DNA from: an uncultured bacterium
Lineage (GTDB): Bacteria; Vulcanimicrobiota; Vulcanimicrobiia; Vulcanimicrobiales; Vulcanimicrobiaceae
DNA length: 41,776 bases
Assembly: GCA_964568035.1 (NCBI GenBank)
Contig: CAZMPP010000001.1
Coordinates: forward strand, 1-41,776
Reading direction: 5' to 3'
The translations under genes were made by a program, and so were the position numbers. Below the pieces are notes generated by a model that did no database searches, had not been told where the DNA came from, and saw nothing but the letters and a program-made list of their open reading frames with translations. How positions within the stretch are numbered: the stretch's first letter is position 1; each line of letters starts with the position of its first letter. Below, piece after piece: positions 20,923-28,498 of this stretch.

Positions 20923-21342
20923 ATGAAAACGTATGGCGTTTCCCGGTCGACGACGGCTTCACCCGAGCGGGTCTGGCGTGTCTGGAGCGACCCGAACAAT
21001 TGGAGCCGCTGGAACTCCGGCATCAAGGCGGCGCAGGTTGACGGACCGCTAGGCAACGGCGTTAAGGGAAAGATGACCACCAATCGCGACACGACGCACG
21101 ACGTTACGTTTTCCAACGTCGTCGAAGGGCGCGGATTTACCATGACGATGGACGGGCCACCCGGCGCCACCTTCGTCTTCACTTGCGAGATTACGCCCGA
21201 CGGCACCGGCAGCACCATCGCACATAACGTCGCCATCTCCGGGCCGATGGCCATTCTCCTCGGTCCGATGGCCAAGCAGATGTCCAAACACTTCATCCCC
21301 GTTCTCGACGATTTATCGCGTACGGCCGAAGCCGTTCCGTGA
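20923..21342 (+). CDS. SRPBCC (START/polyketide cyclase-like) family protein
   Basis: AGGAGAGA Shine-Dalgarno. The N terminus ..SPERVWRVWSDPNNWSRWNSGI.. is typical of SRPBCC proteins. Confidence 0.7.
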   Translation: MKTYGVSRSTTASPERVWRVWSDPNNWSRWNSGIKAAQVDGPLGNGVKGKMTTNRDTTHDVTFSNVVEGRGFTMTMDGPPGATFVFTCEITPDGTGSTIAHNVAISGPMAILLGPMAKQMSKHFIPVLDDLSRTAEAVP

Positions 21343-22724
21343 GAACCGGACTTATCTTTGCGCTTCTCATGCTCGCCGGCTGCGCGGGCTCTTCAACGAG
21401 CTTGCCGCCGTCGGCGCCGCGCGGCGGTGCTCCGCCGCAGACCTGGCTGCTGACCAGCGACGTGCACTTCAACCCGTTCGACGACGCGACGCTGGTCGAT
21501 CGGCTCATTGCATCGCCGGCCGGCCAGTGGCACTCGATTCTTTCCGAATCGACGAAGCCGCCCAGCCCATATTTCAGCGACACGAACTTCGCATTGCTCG
21601 AGTCCGCCCTGGCGGCGATGAAGAGCGTCCTGCCAGATCCGCCGGTCGTCGTCGTAGCCGGCGACTTCATGGCCCATCAGTTCCCCGATCGATTCGCGAA
21701 GGCCGACCCCAGCGCGCCTCCCGCCGCTTACGAAAAGTTCGTCGACAAGACCATGGTTTTTCTGGCGATGGAGTTTGGGGCGAGCTATCCGTCGGCTCAG
21801 TTCGTCGTTGCGCTCGGCAACAACGACGGCTATTGCGGCAACTACATGAGCACGCCCGCGAGTCCGTTTCTTTCCCATACGGCCATGGCGTGGCGCGCGC
21901 TGGTCAATCGCGGTAGGGCCGCTTCGAATTTCGTGCAGCAGTTCTCGAACGGCGGCTATTATACGATGCGCCTGCGGCCTTTTGGAGCGATGCCGGCGAT
22001 CGTTCTAAACAGCGTCTTCTGGTCGAGCTTCTACCAAAATAAGTGCGGGAAGCCCGGCTCCGACCCCGGCGCCGACGAACTGGACTGGTTGGCCTCGAGA
22101 GCCCCGGTGATTGGCGGGCATCCGTTGCTGATGACGCACATCCCTCCGGGCATCGACGAGTATGCCTCGATCAACAACAACGCCGCCACGCCACTCTATA
22201 AGGAAGCCTACACGCAGCGTTTACTGTCAATCCTCGCCGGGATGAGTCCCAGCGCGTTTCTTCTCGGCCACATTCACCATGCAACGTTCGAGATTGCACC
22301 GATAGCCGGCGGTCGGATCGGCACCCTCGGCATTCCTTCGATCAGCCCCAACCAAGGAAACAATCCCGCATTTATTGTCGCGCTGGTAAGCGCGACGTCA
22401 CCGATGCTAACCGATACGACGACCTACGCCTTGCCGCTCGACTCGCTCGAACCATGGTCGAAGCTCTATTCCTTCAATGCCGCATATGGCTTGCAGGCCT
22501 ATGATTCGACGAATCTCCTAAATCTGCAATCGTCAATGGCGAGCGATGCAACGGTGCGTAAAGCATTTTTTAACAACTACAACTCGGGAAGCACGACCGC
22601 CACGCCATCACCGGAGAAGTGGCGATGGTACTGGTGCGGGCACACCAACTTGACGCCCGCACCTTACAGCGATTGTGTGGATCAGCGGCGGCGGCCGCGC
22701 AGATCGGGGAGCGCGAAGACGTAA
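21339..22724 (+). CDS. Metallophosphoesterase lipoprotein (calcineurin-like, acid-sphingomyelinase-like layout)
   Basis: GTG start overlaps the upstream TGA (GTGA). Lipobox MLAGC. Phosphoesterase motifs SDVHFN, GDFMAH, GNNDGY, THIPPG, GHIHH. Confidence 0.75.
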   Translation: MRTGLIFALLMLAGCAGSSTSLPPSAPRGGAPPQTWLLTSDVHFNPFDDATLVDRLIASPAGQWHSILSESTKPPSPYFSDTNFALLESALAAMKSVLPDPPVVVVAGDFMAHQFPDRFAKADPSAPPAAYEKFVDKTMVFLAMEFGASYPSAQFVVALGNNDGYCGNYMSTPASPFLSHTAMAWRALVNRGRAASNFVQQFSNGGYYTMRLRPFGAMPAIVLNSVFWSSFYQNKCGKPGSDPGADELDWLASRAPVIGGHPLLMTHIPPGIDEYASINNNAATPLYKEAYTQRLLSILAGMSPSAFLLGHIHHATFEIAPIAGGRIGTLGIPSISPNQGNNPAFIVALVSATSPMLTDTTTYALPLDSLEPWSKLYSFNAAYGLQAYDSTNLLNLQSSMASDATVRKAFFNNYNSGSTTATPSPEKWRWYWCGHTNLTPAPYSDCVDQRRRPRRSGSAKT

Positions 22725-24064
22725 AGCCGCCCCGAGATCTCCGAGGGATAGGTATCGTCGGCGCTGCCGATATAGAGTTGGCCGTTGACGACCGTGGGTG
22801 ACGAGGTCACGATTTGCTCGTTGAATTCGCCGCTCCAGATGTTATCGCACGTCGATTCTCCGCATCCGGCCGCGGGCCACGCGAGAACTTCACCAGTGTT
22901 GCGTCCGGCGTAGACCACGCCGTTGGCGACCGTTGGTGAGGATGCGACGGCGGCCTGGCGGCCGACGCCGAAACCGCTCCAAATCGGCGGACAGGTCGAC
23001 TTGCCGCAGCCTTTAGCCTTGTAGACGTTGATGCCGTCTTCGACGCCGACGTAGACGCGGCCGTTTGCGATTGCCGGTGAGCCGTTGAAGAAGTCGTTGC
23101 TGTCGGAGGCTCGCCACAGCGGCGCGCACGTCGACTTGCCGCAACCCATTGCTTTGAAGGCCGCCACACCGTGCTGCGAACCGATGTAGACGATGCCTTT
23201 AACGACCGCCGGCGACGATTCGAAGACCGAATATCCTAGCGTTCCCGTCCACAACGGAGCGCAACTCGACGAACCGCAGCCCTTGGCCTTGAATGCATAG
23301 AGCTTGCCGTCGTCTGAGCCGATGTAGAGCACGCCGTTGGCGACCGTCGCCGTCGATTCGATCGATCCGCCGGTCATTCCGGTCCAGACCGGCTCGCAGG
23401 TGCTCTGCCCGCAGCCCGAAGCCTTGAAGGCATAGAGCTTGCCGTCATACGCGCCGACGTAAACCAATCCGCGCGCGACCGTAGGCGACGATTGCAGAAT
23501 GGCATCGGTTCCGGCGACGCCTTGCCAGAGTGGCGGGCAGAGCGATTGACCGCAGCCGGCGGCCGAGAAGACGTCAAGCTTTCCGGCGTTTGAGGAGAAC
23601 GACGTCTGCGAGCCAACGTAGACGAATCCGCCGGCGACCGTCGGCGAGTCCATCATTTGCGCGATCTGCGTCGACTGCCACATCGGCGAGCTGCACAGGC
23701 TCTGGCCACAACCGTTGGCCGAGTACGCCCACAAAACGCCGTCGCTCGATGCGAGGTAGGCTACGCCGTTGACGACGGCGGGCGACGAATAGTCGACCAA
23801 CTTGCCGAGTTGCCCTTGCCACAAAAGCTGTAGCTGCGGCGCGTTCGATTTGTTGAGAATTTTTTCGTGCGGATTAAAGCCGGTATGGTTGTCGTCGAAA
23901 CGGTATTGCGGCCAGTTGACAGTTTTTTCGCCGATCGCCGCCGGCCGTATAAAGGAGGCTTGATGCGTCATCGGGATCGCCGGGTTTCCCGCAGCGCCAC
24001 CTTGGCAGGCGACCATTGACGCGGCGGCCGCCATAACCGAGAGTCGGACTAGAACCTTTAACAC
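22682..24064 (-). CDS. PQQ-like (BamB-type) beta-propeller lipoprotein with a Cys pair in each blade linker
   Basis: GTG 24064 is preceded by GGAG. Lipobox SMVAC. Seven recurrences of A.GCG.S.C.P.W follow (V/L)Y(V/I)GS..G.(L/V).A(F/Y) strands. Confidence 0.85.
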   Translation of the reverse strand: MLKVLVRLSVMAAAASMVACQGGAAGNPAIPMTHQASFIRPAAIGEKTVNWPQYRFDDNHTGFNPHEKILNKSNAPQLQLLWQGQLGKLVDYSSPAVVNGVAYLASSDGVLWAYSANGCGQSLCSSPMWQSTQIAQMMDSPTVAGGFVYVGSQTSFSSNAGKLDVFSAAGCGQSLCPPLWQGVAGTDAILQSSPTVARGLVYVGAYDGKLYAFKASGCGQSTCEPVWTGMTGGSIESTATVANGVLYIGSDDGKLYAFKAKGCGSSSCAPLWTGTLGYSVFESSPAVVKGIVYIGSQHGVAAFKAMGCGKSTCAPLWRASDSNDFFNGSPAIANGRVYVGVEDGINVYKAKGCGKSTCPPIWSGFGVGRQAAVASSPTVANGVVYAGRNTGEVLAWPAAGCGESTCDNIWSGEFNEQIVTSSPTVVNGQLYIGSADDTYPSEISGRLYVFALPDLRGRRR

Positions 24065-24152
24065 CTTAGTCGCTCCATGAGGGGGTGAGAGTCACGCGAA
24101 GCAAGAGCCTACCCGCTACGGGTAAATAAACTCTGAAGCGCTAACTCTGCCG

Positions 24153-26030
24153 CTAGCCTCCGTTGACGTCGACGAAGAGCTCCGTGGCCATCGCAATCAA
24201 AAAGCCGGCGCACATCGTCGCCGTTACGAATGCCGTCAATCCCGTTCGCCGAAGCACGCTCCACAACTCTCCGATCACAAAAACGAGCGCCCCGATTGCG
24301 ATTGCGAGAAAGAACACAGACAGCACCGGCGAGTAGAAGCTGTAGCCTAAGATCGTACCGATGAAGGTCGGGCCGCCCGCGATCAGACCGGCGAGACCGA
24401 TCTGCGCCCAACTCGGAACGACGCGGCCAACGAGCGGCGCGGCGACGCCAAAGCCCTCCGTCGCATTATGCAGTCCAAAGCCGATGATCAACGCGACGGC
24501 CACAGCGGTCGCGCCCGATGCGGCCGACGCGCCGATGGCCAAGCCCTCACCAAAATTGTGGGCCCCGATTCCGATGGCGATGATTGCCGCCAGCACGACT
24601 GGATTGTCGGCGTGCGCAGCCGCTTGGCGCGTAAAATGGGTTGCGGCGCTCCCCAGCCCGACCAATCCGATCAGCAGACCGGCAACAAAAACAAGAATCA
24701 ATGCCGCCGGGAACCCGGCCGTTCCGGCATGCCAGGCGTTGACGCCGGTCGAGATCGGGAGAATCGCACTCTGCGCGATCTCCACGACGAGGTAGAGAAG
24801 AATCCCGATGGCAAGCGCGTTGAGCAGCGCGACGGTTTCCGCCGAAAGCCGCCGCGCGCGAGCGATCGGCAAGCCGAGGAAGATCGTGAAGCCGGCGATC
24901 GCACCCAGCAGTACGGTCATGCCAAAGCTGAGCGCCTTTTTGCTCGTATTCTGCATCGGCATCATCGCGCGGTACATCGACGCCATCACGTTGGGCGTTC
25001 CGACGTAGTGAATCGCGGTAATCAAGCCGTCTGGCATCCCGCTGGCATCTTGAATGTGATCGAGCACGTGACAGTGCACGAGCCAGGTGCCGGGCCGTGC
25101 GTTGGCATCGACGACTACGTCGACGCGCTGCCCCGGAGCGACCAGCACCGTATCCTGAATGTCGCGATAATCCACCGGCGCGGCGTCGCGGGCGACGACC
25201 TGCTGATAATGCCCGTGCGTGTGCATAGTGTGGAACTCTTCGCCCGAGATGTTGATCCAGCGAATTCTAAATCGTTCGCCTTTACGGACGTCGAGCTGGC
25301 GCGTCGCCGGGTATTCCTTGCCATTAAGGGTGAAGTGGTTCTCGGCGGTGCTTTGGATCATCCACGACGAGACGATCTCGAGAAAATCGTGCGCGAGACC
25401 GCGCTCCTCCGGCCTGGGCTGCGACGGTTCGACGATGATCGCACCGTAGAGTCCCGAGTCGACCATCTCTTCGTTATCGTGCGAATGATAGATCAACGTT
25501 CCCGGTTGGTTGGCGACGAATTTATAGACGAAGTGTCCGCCGATCGGCACCAGCGGCTGCGAGATGCCGCCGACGCCATCCATCGTGTCGGGAATATCGT
25601 GCACGCCGTGCAGGTGAACCGTGTCGGGAACGGGCCCGTCGTTGGTGTAGTCGATGACCACGGTGTCGCCTTGATGCACGACCATCGTAGGTCCAGGCAC
25701 GACGCCGTTATAAGTGTTGGCCATCACGGTCAACCCGGGTTGCAGCGTCCACGGCGCGGCGCGTTCGACTAAGTGGAATGTTTTGGTGCGCCCCTGCGCG
25801 CTCGGAATGGCTTGATAGGCGCCGTCGGGACGAAGGAACGACGCCGATTCACCCGGCGCCGGCGTCGCCGCCGGAACGGCCCCGCGGATCGGCTGCAATC
25901 CCGCGGACGTAGAAGCGGGTGCACCGCCCGGCTCGTCCGCGTCGGCCGAGACCACAATCGGGAAAGCGAAGGCCAGCAGCAGCGCCGAGACGGCGGCCGC
26001 ACTGACAAAGCGAGCGAACCGGGGATACAT
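24153..26030 (-). CDS. Fusion protein: secreted two-domain multicopper oxidase plus ZIP-family metal permease
   Basis: One uninterrupted 625-aa frame. Signal peptide MYPRFARFVSAAAVSALLLAFAFPIVVSADA. MCO motifs VHLHGVH, YHSHD, HTMHTHGH, HCHVLDHIQDASGM (residues about 85-341). About 8 TM helices follow, with the paired ZIP metal-site motifs GAHNFGEGLAIG and GLHNATEGFGVA (residues about 366-625). Confidence 0.85.
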   Translation of the reverse strand: MYPRFARFVSAAAVSALLLAFAFPIVVSADADEPGGAPASTSAGLQPIRGAVPAATPAPGESASFLRPDGAYQAIPSAQGRTKTFHLVERAAPWTLQPGLTVMANTYNGVVPGPTMVVHQGDTVVIDYTNDGPVPDTVHLHGVHDIPDTMDGVGGISQPLVPIGGHFVYKFVANQPGTLIYHSHDNEEMVDSGLYGAIIVEPSQPRPEERGLAHDFLEIVSSWMIQSTAENHFTLNGKEYPATRQLDVRKGERFRIRWINISGEEFHTMHTHGHYQQVVARDAAPVDYRDIQDTVLVAPGQRVDVVVDANARPGTWLVHCHVLDHIQDASGMPDGLITAIHYVGTPNVMASMYRAMMPMQNTSKKALSFGMTVLLGAIAGFTIFLGLPIARARRLSAETVALLNALAIGILLYLVVEIAQSAILPISTGVNAWHAGTAGFPAALILVFVAGLLIGLVGLGSAATHFTRQAAAHADNPVVLAAIIAIGIGAHNFGEGLAIGASAASGATAVAVALIIGFGLHNATEGFGVAAPLVGRVVPSWAQIGLAGLIAGGPTFIGTILGYSFYSPVLSVFFLAIAIGALVFVIGELWSVLRRTGLTAFVTATMCAGFLIAMATELFVDVNGG

Positions 26031-26032
26031 TT

Positions 26033-26065
26033 TAGGTATGCCTAATATTACTTATAGGTATGCCT
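26033..26065. promoter_or_regulatory. Two perfect 11-bp direct repeats TAGGTATGCCT (26033-26043 and 26055-26065), 22 bp start to start, directly upstream of the MCO-ZIP start codon
   Basis: Read directly from the sequence. The repeats lie in the most AT-rich stretch of the window, and the proximal repeat ends 3 nt from the ATG at 26030. Confidence 0.4.
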
Positions 26066-26120
26066 TCTCCTCGCAGTATCCGGCCGGTGGCCGTAATTCG
26101 CTTTTTTCAGAGATTCTTTA

Positions 26121-26132: not shown

Positions 26133-26212
26133 CTTATCAGGTCAAGCGGCCGGCTTGAGCCGCCGCTTTCCCATTGCACCGAACTCGAAGAGGAGTTGAA
26201 GAGGAGTTACTG

Positions 26213-26668
26213 ATGTTTCGATGGGTTAACCTAGCCGCGACCCTAGCGATGCTGTCTCTACTTGCCGCTTGCAGTTCAGGCCAACAGGCAGGACCGAGCG
26301 TTGTACCCGCCGCGGCCGGTACTGGATTCCACCACGCGATGTCGCCCGATAAAGACTGCGCCGGCGCGAACGGCGTTACCGTGGCACCGTGTCCCGTGCA
26401 TTTGACCAAGCACACCAGGTCGGGCGTCCTCGTGACCGTGGGCGGTCCCGGCGTCGTGAGTTCTTCTCTGGGCCACATCAGCGGATGCTTTAGCGGCCAC
26501 AAGTGTTATAACGCCAAGCGCGAAGGCGGCAGCCAAACGCAGTGGCGTATTACGTCAGGCAGGTCTTGTGGGTCCGCCGATGTCGAATTCGACGCCATGA
26601 ACGCGAGCGGCCAGCAGGTCGGATACTACTTCCTGAAGGTCTCGAATAGGTATTGCCGCCGGCACTAA
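26213..26668 (+). CDS. Cys-rich lipoprotein of unknown function
   Basis: ATG 26213 lies 6 nt after GAGGAG. Lipobox LLAACSSG. The mature part has several Cys residues and a HHAM motif. I recognised no family. Confidence 0.7.
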   Translation: MFRWVNLAATLAMLSLLAACSSGQQAGPSVVPAAAGTGFHHAMSPDKDCAGANGVTVAPCPVHLTKHTRSGVLVTVGGPGVVSSSLGHISGCFSGHKCYNAKREGGSQTQWRITSGRSCGSADVEFDAMNASGQQVGYYFLKVSNRYCRRH

Positions 26669-26792: not shown

Positions 26793-27299
26793 GTGCCCGA
26801 GATACGACTTCAGCGACCGTTGCGCGTCCCGGCCGATTCGGCCGCCGAAGCGCTGGCAGAGCTGCTCAAAGCGATCGCCGATCAGCAAGGGATGTGGCGT
26901 GGTTTTGCGCTGCACGTTGGTTTGGGGGAGCTGCATCTGCCCGACGTGGGCTATGTCGCGGTACCGATCGACCTGACCGTCGCGCGACTCGACGAGCCGC
27001 CGCGGACCTTCGATATCAGCTTCGTCGCCACGGGTTTGCCCTCAGCCTTTCCCGCGTTCACCGGAAAAATGAGCGTCGAGACCGCCGGTATGGGTGAGTC
27101 GATGTTGTTTCTGACCGGCTCGTACGAGCTCCCGATGCAGTTTTTCGGACGGTTTCTCGACGCCGCTTTGATGCCACGTGTCGCGCAACGATCGTTGGAG
27201 AACTTCGTCGACGAGATTGCCGCTGCATGTGTCGCGCGGGTGGATAAGCGTGAGGCCGAGTTCGCGCGTTACCACTTTTATGCGCAGACGATGCGATGA
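26793..27299 (+). CDS. Hypothetical cytoplasmic protein, translationally coupled to the downstream flavoprotein
   Basis: GTG 26793 lies 5 nt after AGGAG. 168 aa with no signal peptide. Its stop overlaps the next ATG (ATGA). I recognised no family. Confidence 0.6.
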   Translation: MPEIRLQRPLRVPADSAAEALAELLKAIADQQGMWRGFALHVGLGELHLPDVGYVAVPIDLTVARLDEPPRTFDISFVATGLPSAFPAFTGKMSVETAGMGESMLFLTGSYELPMQFFGRFLDAALMPRVAQRSLENFVDEIAAACVARVDKREAEFARYHFYAQTMR

Positions 27300-28498
27300 G
27301 CGCGCCGGGAACGTGCTGCATAGTTGGCGGAGGGCCGGCCGGAATGATGGCCGGCCTGCTTTTGGCTCGAGCCGGCGTGCGGGTGGTGCTGCTCGAAAAG
27401 CACGCCGACTTTCTGCGCGATTTTCGCGGCGATACGATCCATCCGTCGACTCTCGAGGTGATGGCTGAGCTCGGGATACTCGAATCGTTTCTGCGGCGTC
27501 CACACCAAGAGGTGACGATGCTCTCGGGAAACGTCGGCGATACGCTGGTCAAGGTGGCCGATTTCACCCATCTGCCGACGCGCTGCAAGTTCTTGGCCTT
27601 CATGCCGCAGTGGGACTTCCTTAGTTTTCTGGCCCAAGAAGCGGCGCGTTTCCCGAACTTCGATCTGCGCATGCAGACCCGCGCCGAGGGGTTGATTTGG
27701 GAAGGCGATCGCGTCGTGGGCGTGAGCGCGAGAAATCCTGACGGACCGGTCGAGGTGCGAGCGGACCTCACGATTGCCGCCGATGGCCGGGAGTCGCGCA
27801 TTCGAATCGACGCCGGCCTCACGCCGCTGGAGCTGGGCGCGCCGATGGACGTGCTCTGGCTGCGGCTAACGAAGCACGAAAGCGATCCGCACGAAACTTT
27901 CGGTTACATTCGCGGCGGCCGCATCATGGCGCTGATCGATCGCGGCTCTTACTGGCAGTGTGCGTACGTTATTCCAAAGGACACCCTCGCCGAGCTGCGC
28001 GAGCGTGGATTGGAAGCCTTCCGCAGCGAGATTGCGGCGATCGTCCCGTTTCTCCACGATCGCGTCCACGAACTCGTAGGTTGGGACGACGTCAAGCTCC
28101 TGACCGTGCGGGTGAATCGCCTGCGGCAATGGTCTCGCCCCGGGCTGCTCTGCATCGGCGATGCCGCGCACGCCATGTCGCCGATCGGCGGCGTCGGCAT
28201 CAACCTGGCGATTCAAGATGCCGTGGCGGCGGCGAACATACTCGGGCCGAGGCTTCGCGCAGGCGGCGTTACGATCGACGAACTTCGCGCCGTGCAGCGC
28301 CGGCGCGAGCCCGCGGCGCGCCGCACGCAGGCGTTGCAGCTCTTCATTCAGCGACGGATTATCGGTCGCGTCCTGCACGAAGGGCGTGCGCCGTTTTTAG
28401 GCGGTTTGCCCCGGCTGATCCGCTGGCTGCCGTTTCTACCGCGTATTCCCGGACATTTGGTGGGACTCGGGTTCCAGCCCGAGCACATTACGACGTAA
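27296..28498 (+). CDS. FAD-dependent monooxygenase/oxidoreductase (UbiH/PHBH-like)
   Basis: Dinucleotide-binding fingerprint CCIVGGGPAGMMAGLLLARAGVRVVLLEK and the second FAD fingerprint CIGDAAHAMSPIGGVGINLAIQDA. Confidence 0.85.
   Translation: MSAPGTCCIVGGGPAGMMAGLLLARAGVRVVLLEKHADFLRDFRGDTIHPSTLEVMAELGILESFLRRPHQEVTMLSGNVGDTLVKVADFTHLPTRCKFLAFMPQWDFLSFLAQEAARFPNFDLRMQTRAEGLIWEGDRVVGVSARNPDGPVEVRADLTIAADGRESRIRIDAGLTPLELGAPMDVLWLRLTKHESDPHETFGYIRGGRIMALIDRGSYWQCAYVIPKDTLAELRERGLEAFRSEIAAIVPFLHDRVHELVGWDDVKLLTVRVNRLRQWSRPGLLCIGDAAHAMSPIGGVGINLAIQDAVAAANILGPRLRAGGVTIDELRAVQRRREPAARRTQALQLFIQRRIIGRVLHEGRAPFLGGLPRLIRWLPFLPRIPGHLVGLGFQPEHITT

Follow-up and report, generated by a model that had tools for sequence, protein, structure and literature searches.

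A multicopper oxidase fused to a ZIP permease behind an iron-box-type operator: a candidate redox-coupled metal importer of Eremiobacterota

Can an oxidase and the permease that it may serve be parts of one polypeptide, and if so, which metal would they move? This question is raised by a gene in contig CAZMPP010000001.1 (assembly GCA_964568035.1) of an uncultured soil bacterium of the Vulcanimicrobiaceae, of which we analysed positions 1 to 41,776, hereafter the window. A preliminary description had pointed to one frame, at 24153..26030, in which a secreted multicopper oxidase (MCO) runs on into a metal permease of the ZIP family, and had suggested that the product is an oxidase-coupled metal transporter. 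We find that this MCO-ZIP fusion is a genuine and widespread protein, that its start codon abuts a predicted operator of the IdeR/DtxR iron-box type, and that the same ZIP subfamily has been joined repeatedly to other redox domains. Together, these observations tentatively favour an importer of iron that is made under iron starvation.

The gene has 625 codons, starts with ATG and lies on the minus strand, which the preliminary description had not given; the open reading frame listing and the translation show it to be uninterrupted. When 5.8 billion proteins were searched, 809 relatives were retrieved; the top 120 all have 599-625 residues, are 77-97% identical and show the MCO domains, and most of them are also listed with Zip. 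The databases name such proteins by one half or the other ('multicopper oxidase domain-containing protein' at NCBI, 'ZIP family zinc transporter' at JGI). In a scan with one genome per species, at least 147 species-level genomes were found to encode a full-length relative, nearly all of them from Eremiobacterota (= Vulcanimicrobiota), including Cybelea, Tumulicola, Tyrphobacter and Baltobacteraceae. The relatives include four records titled 'chromosome: 1' (OY970335.1, OY969421.1, OY970243.1 and OY969933.1), and one relative (locus L001) is 97% identical to the window protein and probably comes from the same species. Two more full-length fusions, at 65% and 47% identity, were found among representatives of 50%-identity clusters, the latter of which led to 625 further proteins, also from Eremiobacterota. 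The full-length fusion accordingly falls into three clades that reach down to about 45% identity, and 36 sequences from these clades, 42-87% identical to the window protein, were aligned for an analysis of conservation. The junction between the two halves is in frame throughout this alignment. Because the same holds for all relatives, records at chromosome level among them, a missed stop, a frameshift or a chimeric join is excluded without recourse to reads, and the single frame of the preliminary description stands.

The oxidase half matches the Pfam domains Cu-oxidase_3 (residues 96-204, E 1.8e-30, 105.9 bits against a cut-off of 21) and Cu-oxidase_2 (residues 230-328, E 1.1e-24, 87.2 bits against 20.4). 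Its closest solved sequences are the two-domain MCOs 2zwn (E 9e-49) and 3g5w (E 1.5e-42). A Foldseek search with the AlphaFold2 model of the full protein likewise ranked 2zwn first (E 1e-20, template-modelling score by target 0.71), followed by 3g5w and 3gdc, and the Fet3p structure 1zpu appeared at rank 14 for the oxidase half. The four MCO copper motifs (HxH, HxH, HxxHxH and HCHxxxH), which make up the type 1 (T1) site and the trinuclear cluster, are complete. Domain 1 contributes L1 (H139-L-H141) and L2 (Y-H182-S-H184), and domain 2 contributes L3 (H267-TM-H270-T-H272-G-H274) and L4 (H319-C320-H321-VLD-H325); H139/H141, H182/H184, H267/H270/H272/H274 and H319/C320/H321/H325 are invariant in the 36 sequences. 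The axial Met, M332 at position H+7, is not invariant and is replaced by Gly in clade 2. Between H182 and H184 these sequences have Ser or Thr but no Cys, whereas type-C two-domain MCOs have their T1 Cys at that position; in the alignment with 2zwn the segment iyHSHdn of the query stands opposite wyHCHvn. The T1 Cys of 2zwn and 3g5w belongs to domain 1 and that of the present protein to domain 2, so that the T1 site has moved from one domain to the other among close sequence relatives; by its motifs, the arrangement found here is the SLAC-like type-B pattern. The T1 loop is rich in Met in clades 2-3 (DHMMNGxVM), and the oxidase presumably assembles as a trimer, by analogy with other two-domain MCOs.

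Two relatives of the oxidase half, P0123 (392 residues) and P0125 (405 residues), are MCO-only proteins at 57-59% identity with degenerate copper ligands. In P0123, ETMETMRIHGH and VESDVLAH replace HTMHTHGH and HCHVLDH, and the C terminus is a single hydrophobic anchor. Both may be inactive paralogues or decayed copies.

The identity of the C-terminal half needed closer study. The Pfam Zip model (PF02535) matches residues 474-583 (E 3.6e-7), but its 30.2 bits lie under the gathering score of 35.1; across this ZIP subfamily the scores range from 25 to 49 bits, with P0126, P0234, P0251 and P0190 above the cut-off and P0138 below it. Yet a profile built from 29 ZIP halves matched the structurally solved BbZIP with E 2e-11 (profile positions 8-253 of 260, chain residues 60-306), and BbZIP was also the sole match in the PDB when the half was searched as a single sequence, weak but end to end. 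The NCBIfam model for ZupT (PRK04201) matched over its full length (E 1.4e-9), with 37.6 bits against an equivalog cut-off of 252; judged by these scores, the ZIP half is ZupT-like and not a ZupT orthologue. In its AlphaFold2 model (mean predicted local distance difference test, pLDDT, 93.7; predicted template-modelling score 0.89) the half forms eight transmembrane (TM) helices. Foldseek ranks 1-10 for this model were all BbZIP (E 3.6e-6 to 4.4e-4, template-modelling scores 0.5-0.63), and the next match had E 0.1. Profile, ZupT match and fold therefore agree on a ZIP permease despite the low Pfam score.

The metal-binding helices point the same way. HNFGEGLAIG aligns with HNLPEGMAIG in TM4 of BbZIP and HNATEGFGVA with QDVPEGLAVA in TM5. 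H491-N492-F493-x-E495-G496, H521-N522-x-T524-E525-G526 and E588 are invariant in the 36 sequences, and the two metal motifs are invariant in three alignments. T555 aligns with E240 in TM6 of BbZIP, and G-E588 with the H-E pair of its TM7. The copper and HNxxEG motifs quoted in the preliminary description are thus all present, and their ligand residues, the axial Met aside, are fixed across the three clades.

The remaining parts of the polypeptide are consistent with an oxidase held outside by its permease (Table 1). The signal peptide has neither a twin arginine nor a lipobox, contains the helix modelled at residues 3-22 of the full-length protein, and is followed in clade 1, directly after its hydrophobic core, by 'A(D/R)ADE/Q'. 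The full-length AlphaFold2 model is less confident than that of the ZIP half (pLDDT 70.6), with moderate confidence in the oxidase half and pLDDT below 50 at residues 23-61. Those residues overlap the Pro/Ala-rich segment, which holds the block GLQPxxGxxPxATPAPGES that is conserved in clade 1. The connector has its core, MASMYRAMMPMQ, at residues 350-361 (nucleotides 24948-24983), inside the approximate range given by the preliminary description. Although the sequence of the linker before TM1 differs between relatives, an abundance of Met and/or His is common to the three clades, as in SMYRAMM, SMAAQDAMAMAPS, GMESAMGGASHGSH and the MGGMPGM of P0121. Arg-rich loops after TM1, TM3 and TM7, together with the exported oxidase, fit a ZIP whose N terminus faces outwards. 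Translation, Pfam, alignment and models confirm the proposed order of signal peptide, Pro/Ala-rich segment, two-cupredoxin MCO and eight-helix ZIP in one frame, and the topology is self-consistent, as had been claimed.

The mature N terminus (DADE/ADADQ) and the block that follows it are kept across clade 1 despite the modelled disorder, and this conserved segment (residues 30-78) could be metal- or partner-binding.

To place the fusion within its ZIP subfamily, both halves were mapped onto the 150 best representatives, followed by a Pfam scan. Subfamily members, 39-61% identical to the window ZIP half, occur in the reverse order ZIP-MCO (P0126, P0131), as ZIP-cupredoxin (P0190, P0203, P0216, P0234, P0248) and as ZIP-cytochrome c (P0177), in addition to thousands of clusters of standalone ZIPs. 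In P0216, the Cys/His/Met stretch of a blue-copper site is seen at the C terminus, and the cupredoxin matches the Copper-bind model for plastocyanin/azurin. As both termini of a ZIP lie outside, all of the fused partners are extracytoplasmic one-electron redox domains. Such repeated, independent fusion is good evidence that redox domain and ZIP work together, and this distribution of sequences indicates that the coupling of MCO and ZIP is under selection. A split form of the MCO-ZIP pair was not found: no such partner adjoined the genes at three standalone ZIP loci or two standalone MCO loci, and at the inspected locus of P0138 the neighbours were unrelated. Two details of these proteins may be recorded: P0131 has Gln at the first His of HCH, and P0234 and P0251 (593 residues) carry an extra C-terminal region of ~250 residues without a Pfam match.

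A clue to function comes from the upstream region. An alignment of upstream regions revealed a conserved element abutting the start codon, 5'-gaggagaAGGCATACCTAtaagtaatatTAGGCATACCTAaaATG, that consists of two TTAGG-N4-CCTAA palindromes 22 nucleotides apart, flanking the -10-like hexamer TAATAT. The proximal palindrome is the sole TAGGN4CCTA in the 41.8-kb window, where 0.08 would be expected. TTAGG-N4-CCTAA stands at the gene start in 77 of the 80 clade-1 loci, and if up to one mismatch is allowed, 1.26 Mb contain 85 occurrences, of which 80 are at an MCO-ZIP promoter; the three clade-1 loci without a strict match near the gene are L064, L067 and L069. The distal copy is also conserved among the clade-1 loci, G8, C15 and T16 being invariant (alignment A5, columns 7-17). 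A strict scan called no sigma-70 promoter at the window MCO-ZIP gene; in L069, the operator layout comes with a clear TTGACA, a 17-nucleotide spacer and TAGTAT.

The same palindrome precedes the clade-3 gene (L096), the first gene of clade-2 operons (L094, L097) and the reverse-order ZIP-MCO (L081). It also precedes a standalone ZIP from an unrelated assembly (L083/L084), where it is present once, 34 nucleotides ahead of an ordinary Shine-Dalgarno sequence. A variant, TTAGC-N4-GCTAA, precedes the ZIP-cupredoxin gene of L082 and another standalone ZIP (L086). The element is therefore a property of the ZIP subfamily, irrespective of fusion partner. TTAGG-N4-CCTAA corresponds to positions 6-19 of the published IdeR iron box, TTAGGTTAGGCTAACCTAA, and the proximal 19-mer of the window is identical to that box at 14 of 19 positions. 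We consequently predict that this is an operator of the IdeR/DtxR iron-box type. Because the box ends 2 nucleotides before the ATG, where no promoter can lie further downstream, a metal-loaded DtxR-type protein bound there would have to repress. Repression of this kind would limit expression to times of shortage of the sensed metal; this suits an importer and speaks against efflux.

We also considered whether the two palindromes form an RNA hairpin or a structured ribosome-binding site, and rejected this. Pairing in 86.8% of cells is explained by the two being copies of one palindrome, covariation is weak (9 of 500 shuffles reach it) and central pairs are often broken. The motif also occurs as a single copy 34 nucleotides before the Shine-Dalgarno sequence in L083, as well as before other first genes of operons. 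A DNA operator is thus favoured.

Clade 2 provides a candidate for the protein that binds it. A DtxR-family gene lies 8 nucleotides upstream of MCO-ZIP in L094/L095 and L085 and overlaps it by 4 nucleotides in the 65%-divergent L097/L098. The encoded regulator has the domains Fe_dep_repress, Fe_dep_repr_C and FeoA, and its best solved relative is IdeR of M. tuberculosis (E 1.5e-26). It retains Met10, Cys102, Glu105 and His106, the primary Fe(II) site of IdeR; its DNA-reading residues differ from those of IdeR. In L082, a DtxR-family gene adjoins the ZIP-cupredoxin gene and is divergent from it. The co-operonic IdeR-like regulator and the operator together point to import under limitation of a metal, probably iron, rather than to export.

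The clade-2 operons (L094 4246-9313, L095; L097 4306-6866) begin with the regulator, followed by MCO-ZIP. In L094/L095 the latter is followed in turn by genes for an AhpC/TSA-redoxin (TlpA-like, 173 residues) and a Peptidase_M48 (630 residues). The redoxin could serve the maturation of copper sites exported by the Sec route.

In clade 1, two genomes associate the fusion with a protein of another kind. In L069 (6190-9806), the operator is followed by a three-gene operon that encodes a Cyc2-like cytochrome-porin, a YceI-like protein and MCO-ZIP; L064 (3-1543) has the same two genes upstream of MCO-ZIP, and its contig starts inside the first. The Cyc2 signature comprises a signal peptide, AXPXFAR[QK][TY], a single CXXCH at a stated distance of 5 residues from that motif, PXL 4 residues downstream and a length of at least 365 residues (Keffer 2021). 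The first gene of L069 encodes 371 residues, with AIPLFAHQY (His for Arg), CEKCH 3 residues on, and PHL after 3 intervening residues; its product had no Pfam or PDB match. It nearly fits the signature and, on this similarity, would link the fusion to a type of outer-membrane Fe(II) oxidase.

What, then, does the protein do? The reading that we favour, though we hold it with something less than even confidence, is that of an oxidase-coupled iron importer induced by iron starvation, similar in principle to Fet3p/Ftr1p but with a ZIP as the permease. The Sec signal would export the two-domain MCO to the extracytoplasmic side, where the Met-rich linker would tether it to the outward N terminus of the ZupT/BbZIP-like permease. 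In metal-replete cells a metal-loaded DtxR-family repressor, presumably encoded elsewhere in the genome from which the window derives, would shut the gene off, and the protein would be made when iron becomes scarce. Fe(II), a form of iron that is stable where these bacteria live, in acidic peat and soil, would be captured near the T1 site and the linker and oxidised with O2 as the electron sink. Direct hand-over of the oxidised iron to the ZIP pore would then confer iron specificity on an otherwise promiscuous divalent-metal permease. From the behaviour of the ZIP family and the repressor-type operator we infer import as the direction, and repression by the metal-bound regulator, ferroxidase activity and hand-over are likewise proposals drawn from these features. 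Iron is favoured as the metal by the Fe-type site of the regulator, the similarity to the iron box, the Cyc2-like partner in two genomes and the acidic, Fe(II)-rich habitats; Baltobacteraceae are predicted in the literature to be iron oxidisers. The earlier suggestion of an oxidase-coupled transporter is strengthened by the independent fusions of the ZIP subfamily to an MCO in both orders, to cupredoxins and to cytochrome c, by the IdeR/DtxR-type operators and the co-operonic regulator of clade 2.

Several points weigh against iron or against the coupling. The regulator of clade 2 has not kept the ancillary metal site (H79Q, H98Y), and that of L082 has Asp and His at the positions of Met10 and Cys102, so the sensed metal may differ between lineages. 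A tblastn search with three DtxR-family queries found no gene of this family in the window or in L001-L080, no regulator gene lies within 8 kb in clade 1, and the match between operator and regulator is one of similarity. No ferroxidase-specific residues were identified in the oxidase, no attempt having been made to place Fet3p E185/D283/D409 reliably on a two-domain MCO. ZIPs are importers of divalent cations, and we know of no ZIP that has Fe(III), the ferroxidase product, as a substrate. The Met-rich linkers and the Met-rich T1 loops of clades 2-3 are more typical of Cu(I) sites. Finally, the only literature on an MCO together with a ZIP, from ammonia-oxidising archaea, describes mild induction by copper limitation and proposes uptake of copper.

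The last two points raise the possibility of copper acquisition, in which the oxidase would turn linker-bound Cu(I) into Cu(II) for import by the ZIP; in a variant, the ZIP would handle copper for the metallation of its own Sec-exported oxidase or cupredoxin partner. The archaeal precedent speaks for this, as do the Met- and/or His-rich linker of every clade (MGGMPGM in P0121 included), the Met-rich T1 loop, the many cuproproteins among the partner domains and the TlpA-like redoxin of the clade-2 operon. Redoxins of the TlpA type are used in the maturation of copper sites. However, the promoter carries boxes of the IdeR/DtxR type, the linked regulator has an Fe-type site, and to our knowledge no member of the DtxR family senses copper. 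The cytochrome c partner of P0177 needs no copper, and no CopZ, CsoR or CopA genes lie nearby in the inspected loci. We regard copper acquisition as unlikely, although it is the main rival of the iron reading.

Equally improbable in our view is that the two halves are not coupled, the ZIP being an ordinary importer of Fe(II), Mn(II) or Zn(II) under DtxR-family control, with manganese perhaps the relevant metal, and the oxidase merely tethered to the membrane, where its substrates might be phenolic or humic ligands of iron, or where it might clear excess periplasmic Fe(II)/Cu(I). Thousands of standalone ZIPs of the same subfamily have no redox neighbours, and the operator is found before standalone ZIPs too. 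The non-Fe-type site of the L082 regulator, the ZnuA-type ABC (ATP-binding cassette) system near the clade-3 gene and the laccase-type two-domain MCOs that are the closest solved oxidases are also consistent with it. Against this, fusions have arisen repeatedly, involving four kinds or orders of redox domain that are without exception extracytoplasmic, and MCO-ZIP has been retained to about 45% identity. The short conserved linker follows directly on the T1-bearing domain, which anchoring alone hardly explains.

Efflux or detoxification, with the ZIP releasing Fe(II)/Cu(I) and the oxidase making a less toxic or less re-importable form, has a parallel in animals, for which a review covers oxidase-assisted efflux. 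Ferroportin works there with ceruloplasmin, and E. coli pairs CopA with CueO. Characterised ZIPs, in turn, import metal, and the operator, which overlaps the -10-like box and abuts the ATG, predicts repression at high metal, the opposite of what efflux needs; we consider this explanation very unlikely. That assembly or annotation merely put two ordinary genes together, through an overlooked stop, a shifted frame or a chimeric contig, is so improbable that it can be set aside: beyond the Pfam Zip score of the window protein nothing was found in its favour, and the same conserved in-frame junction recurs in the 147 species-level genomes, from many projects and assemblers and in chromosome-level records, with the ZIP identity confirmed by profile and fold.

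Table 1. Features of the MCO-ZIP gene, its promoter and its neighbourhood in the window.
Feature	Position	Strand	Remarks
Divergent pair	26793-28498	+	168-residue protein: weak Polyketide_cyc2/SRPBCC match, E 0.01, below Pfam cut-off
Lipoprotein gene	26174-26668		164 residues
Distal operator copy	26055..26066	-	AAGGCATACCTA; half-degenerate palindrome, in 22-nucleotide register with proximal copy
-10-like hexamer	26045..26050	-	TAATAT; between operator copies; CAATCT in most relatives; putative
Proximal operator	26032..26045	-	TTAGGCATACCTAA; TTAGG-N4-CCTAA, ends 2 nucleotides before ATG
Sec-type signal peptide	25944..26030	-	residues 1-29; MYPRFARFVSAAAVSALLLAFAFPIVVSA, then DADE; putative cleavage site, placed by eye
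Pro/Ala-rich N-terminal segment of mature protein	25797..25943	-	residues 30-78; translation and alignment
MCO cupredoxin domain 1	25398..25796	-	residues 79-211; Cu-oxidase_3 match, invariant ligands
MCO cupredoxin domain 2	24993..25397	-	residues 212-346; Cu-oxidase_2 match, invariant ligands
Met-rich connector	24936..24992	-	residues 347-365; PNVMASMYRAMMPMQNTSK; modelled short helix 349-356
ZIP permease domain	24156..24935	-	residues 366-625; 8 TM helices, both termini outside
TM4 metal motif	24537..24560	-	H491-N-F-G-E495-G-L-A; aligned to BbZIP HNLPEGMAIG; invariant
TM5 metal motif	24447..24470	-	H521-N-A-T-E525-G-F-G; aligned to BbZIP QDVPEGLAVA; invariant
Terminator-like hairpin	24108..24126	-	27 nucleotides past stop codon; 8-pair stem, weak T tract
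Beta-propeller gene	22682-24064	-	460 residues, secreted, PQQ/BamB-like
Lipoprotein gene	21339-22724	+	461 residues, LAGC lipobox

The genomic context of the clade-1 genes adds little to these arguments. The only conserved neighbours are the divergent pair, which encodes the 168-residue protein and a flavin adenine dinucleotide (FAD)-dependent monooxygenase and is found in 47-49 of the 80 loci; in the window, the 164-residue lipoprotein gene is inserted between this pair and the MCO-ZIP promoter. The genes downstream vary and include no metal chaperone or regulator, and we rejected conserved operon partners in clade 1 in favour of plain synteny. The beta-propeller of the pyrroloquinoline quinone (PQQ)-like type encoded directly downstream in the window was likewise considered as a partner and rejected, being common to the three closest relatives only. 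From this restricted occurrence and the terminator-like hairpin, the window gene is probably monocistronic.

The propeller has seven G-C-G-x-S-x-C-x-P-x-W repeats, one per blade, each with a Cys pair. Its gene is convergent with that of the 461-residue lipoprotein, the 3' end of which overlaps it by 43 nucleotides; this lipoprotein shows motifs of calcineurin-like phosphoesterases (DVHFNPF, GDFMAH, GNNDG and GHIHH) without a Pfam match at E 0.001. In L096 (2805-4961 and 9241-11748), the clade-3 MCO-ZIP gene is divergent from a cluster that encodes an extracytoplasmic function (ECF) sigma factor, a 173-residue protein and a MucB/RseB-like protein, with 40 nucleotides between them, and a metal ABC importer of the ZnuA/ABC-3 type lies 2.4 kb downstream of it.

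How does the protein compare with known systems? With Fet3p/Ftr1p it shares an MCO on the outside and a metal permease, predicted expression under iron limitation, and the proposed principle that oxidation gives specificity and is followed by hand-over to the pore. However, the MCO of yeast, Fet3p, comprises three domains and a C-terminal anchor of its own, whereas the window MCO has two domains and is presumably trimeric; Ftr1 has REXLE motifs in place of the HNxxE motifs of the ZIP; the yeast system consists of two polypeptides rather than one; and the regulator proposed here is of the bacterial IdeR type. The window protein is thus not a member of the Ftr1/EfeU permease family, but may possibly be a functional analogue. 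EfeUOB, FtrABCD and FetMP couple a periplasmic cupredoxin-type or copper-binding component to an iron permease of the inner membrane, which parallels ZIP-cupredoxin and MCO-ZIP; they differ in having an Ftr1/EfeU permease rather than a ZIP, separate polypeptides and, usually, Fur as the regulator. These systems work at acidic pH, where Fe(II) is stable.

Each half also departs from its own relatives. The ZIP half shares with BbZIP and ZupT the eight-helix fold and the metal motifs of TM4 and TM5; it is about 25% identical to BbZIP, has HN in TM5 where BbZIP has QD, and is extended at its N terminus by the 360-residue extracytoplasmic oxidase. The oxidase half has the two-cupredoxin fold and the four copper motifs of the two-domain MCOs (mgLAC, 2zwn; the blue copper oxidase of N. 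europaea, 3g5w; and the SLAC type), but is exported by a Sec rather than a Tat signal and is tethered to the membrane through a transporter. As to regulation, the TTAGG/CCTAA half-sites and the IdeR fold and primary metal site of the clade-2 regulator recall the IdeR/DtxR regulons of Actinobacteria; the differences are a 14-bp palindrome in two copies 22 nucleotides apart, in place of one 19-bp box, and the phylum, Eremiobacterota.

The nearest precedent is found in ammonia-oxidising archaea, in which an MCO, MCO1, is encoded next to a ZIP and a model like that of Fet3/Ftr1 has been proposed (Kerou 2016; Reyes 2020; Daebeler 2018; Herbold 2017). Compared by description, in both cases a ZIP 'zinc/iron permease' and a two-domain MCO are genetically linked. 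In the archaea, however, the two are separate genes, their proposed substrate is copper, or MCO1 is a candidate for hydroxylamine oxidation, and no iron box has been reported for them. By analogy, the window protein has the appearance of a Rosetta-stone fusion of this pair; no archaeal MCO1 or ZIP sequence was among the matches listed for the window protein and its ZIP half. The preliminary description, which knew of no characterised MCO-ZIP fusion, is right for the fused protein, but the split pair is already in the literature and the fused form is common in databases, where it is annotated by one half. The principle of pairing an oxidase with a permease and both protein families were also known before. 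In the literature we found no description of an MCO-ZIP, ZIP-cupredoxin or ZIP-cytochrome fusion, of iron-box control linked to one, or of MCOs in Eremiobacterota.

In its broadest form, our proposal is that one prokaryotic ZIP subfamily constitutes a class of redox-coupled metal importers, controlled by DtxR/IdeR-type proteins through TTAGG-N4-CCTAA and joined at either extracytoplasmic terminus to an MCO, a cupredoxin or a cytochrome c. The MCO-ZIP of Eremiobacterota would then be a third independent ferroxidase-permease route of iron uptake, after Fet3/Ftr1 and EfeUOB/FtrABCD. This generalisation is possible but somewhat doubtful, and we offer it as a tentative one.

The selectivity and directionality of ZIPs are still debated, and ZIPs have so far been viewed as stand-alone carriers of divalent cations. 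The repeated joining of a ZIP to electron-transfer domains, with a predicted repressor of iron type in control, suggests that the function of a ZIP can include redox chemistry at the mouth of the pore; if this is true, either the ZIP accepts the product of the oxidase or redox chemistry gates its selectivity. The fusion offers a compact, single-gene system in which such coupling can be tested. Candidatus Baltobacteraceae resolves to the NCBI family Vulcanimicrobiaceae, which includes the genus Vulcanimicrobium with a cultivated species, so experiments are feasible. The fusion is also evidence that MCO1 and the ZIP encoded beside it in ammonia-oxidising archaea cooperate, as has long been proposed. 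The Eremiobacterota themselves abound in peat, tundra and mine tailings and are predicted iron oxidisers; for them, the gene would mark a way of acquiring metal that is phylum-wide and probably important.

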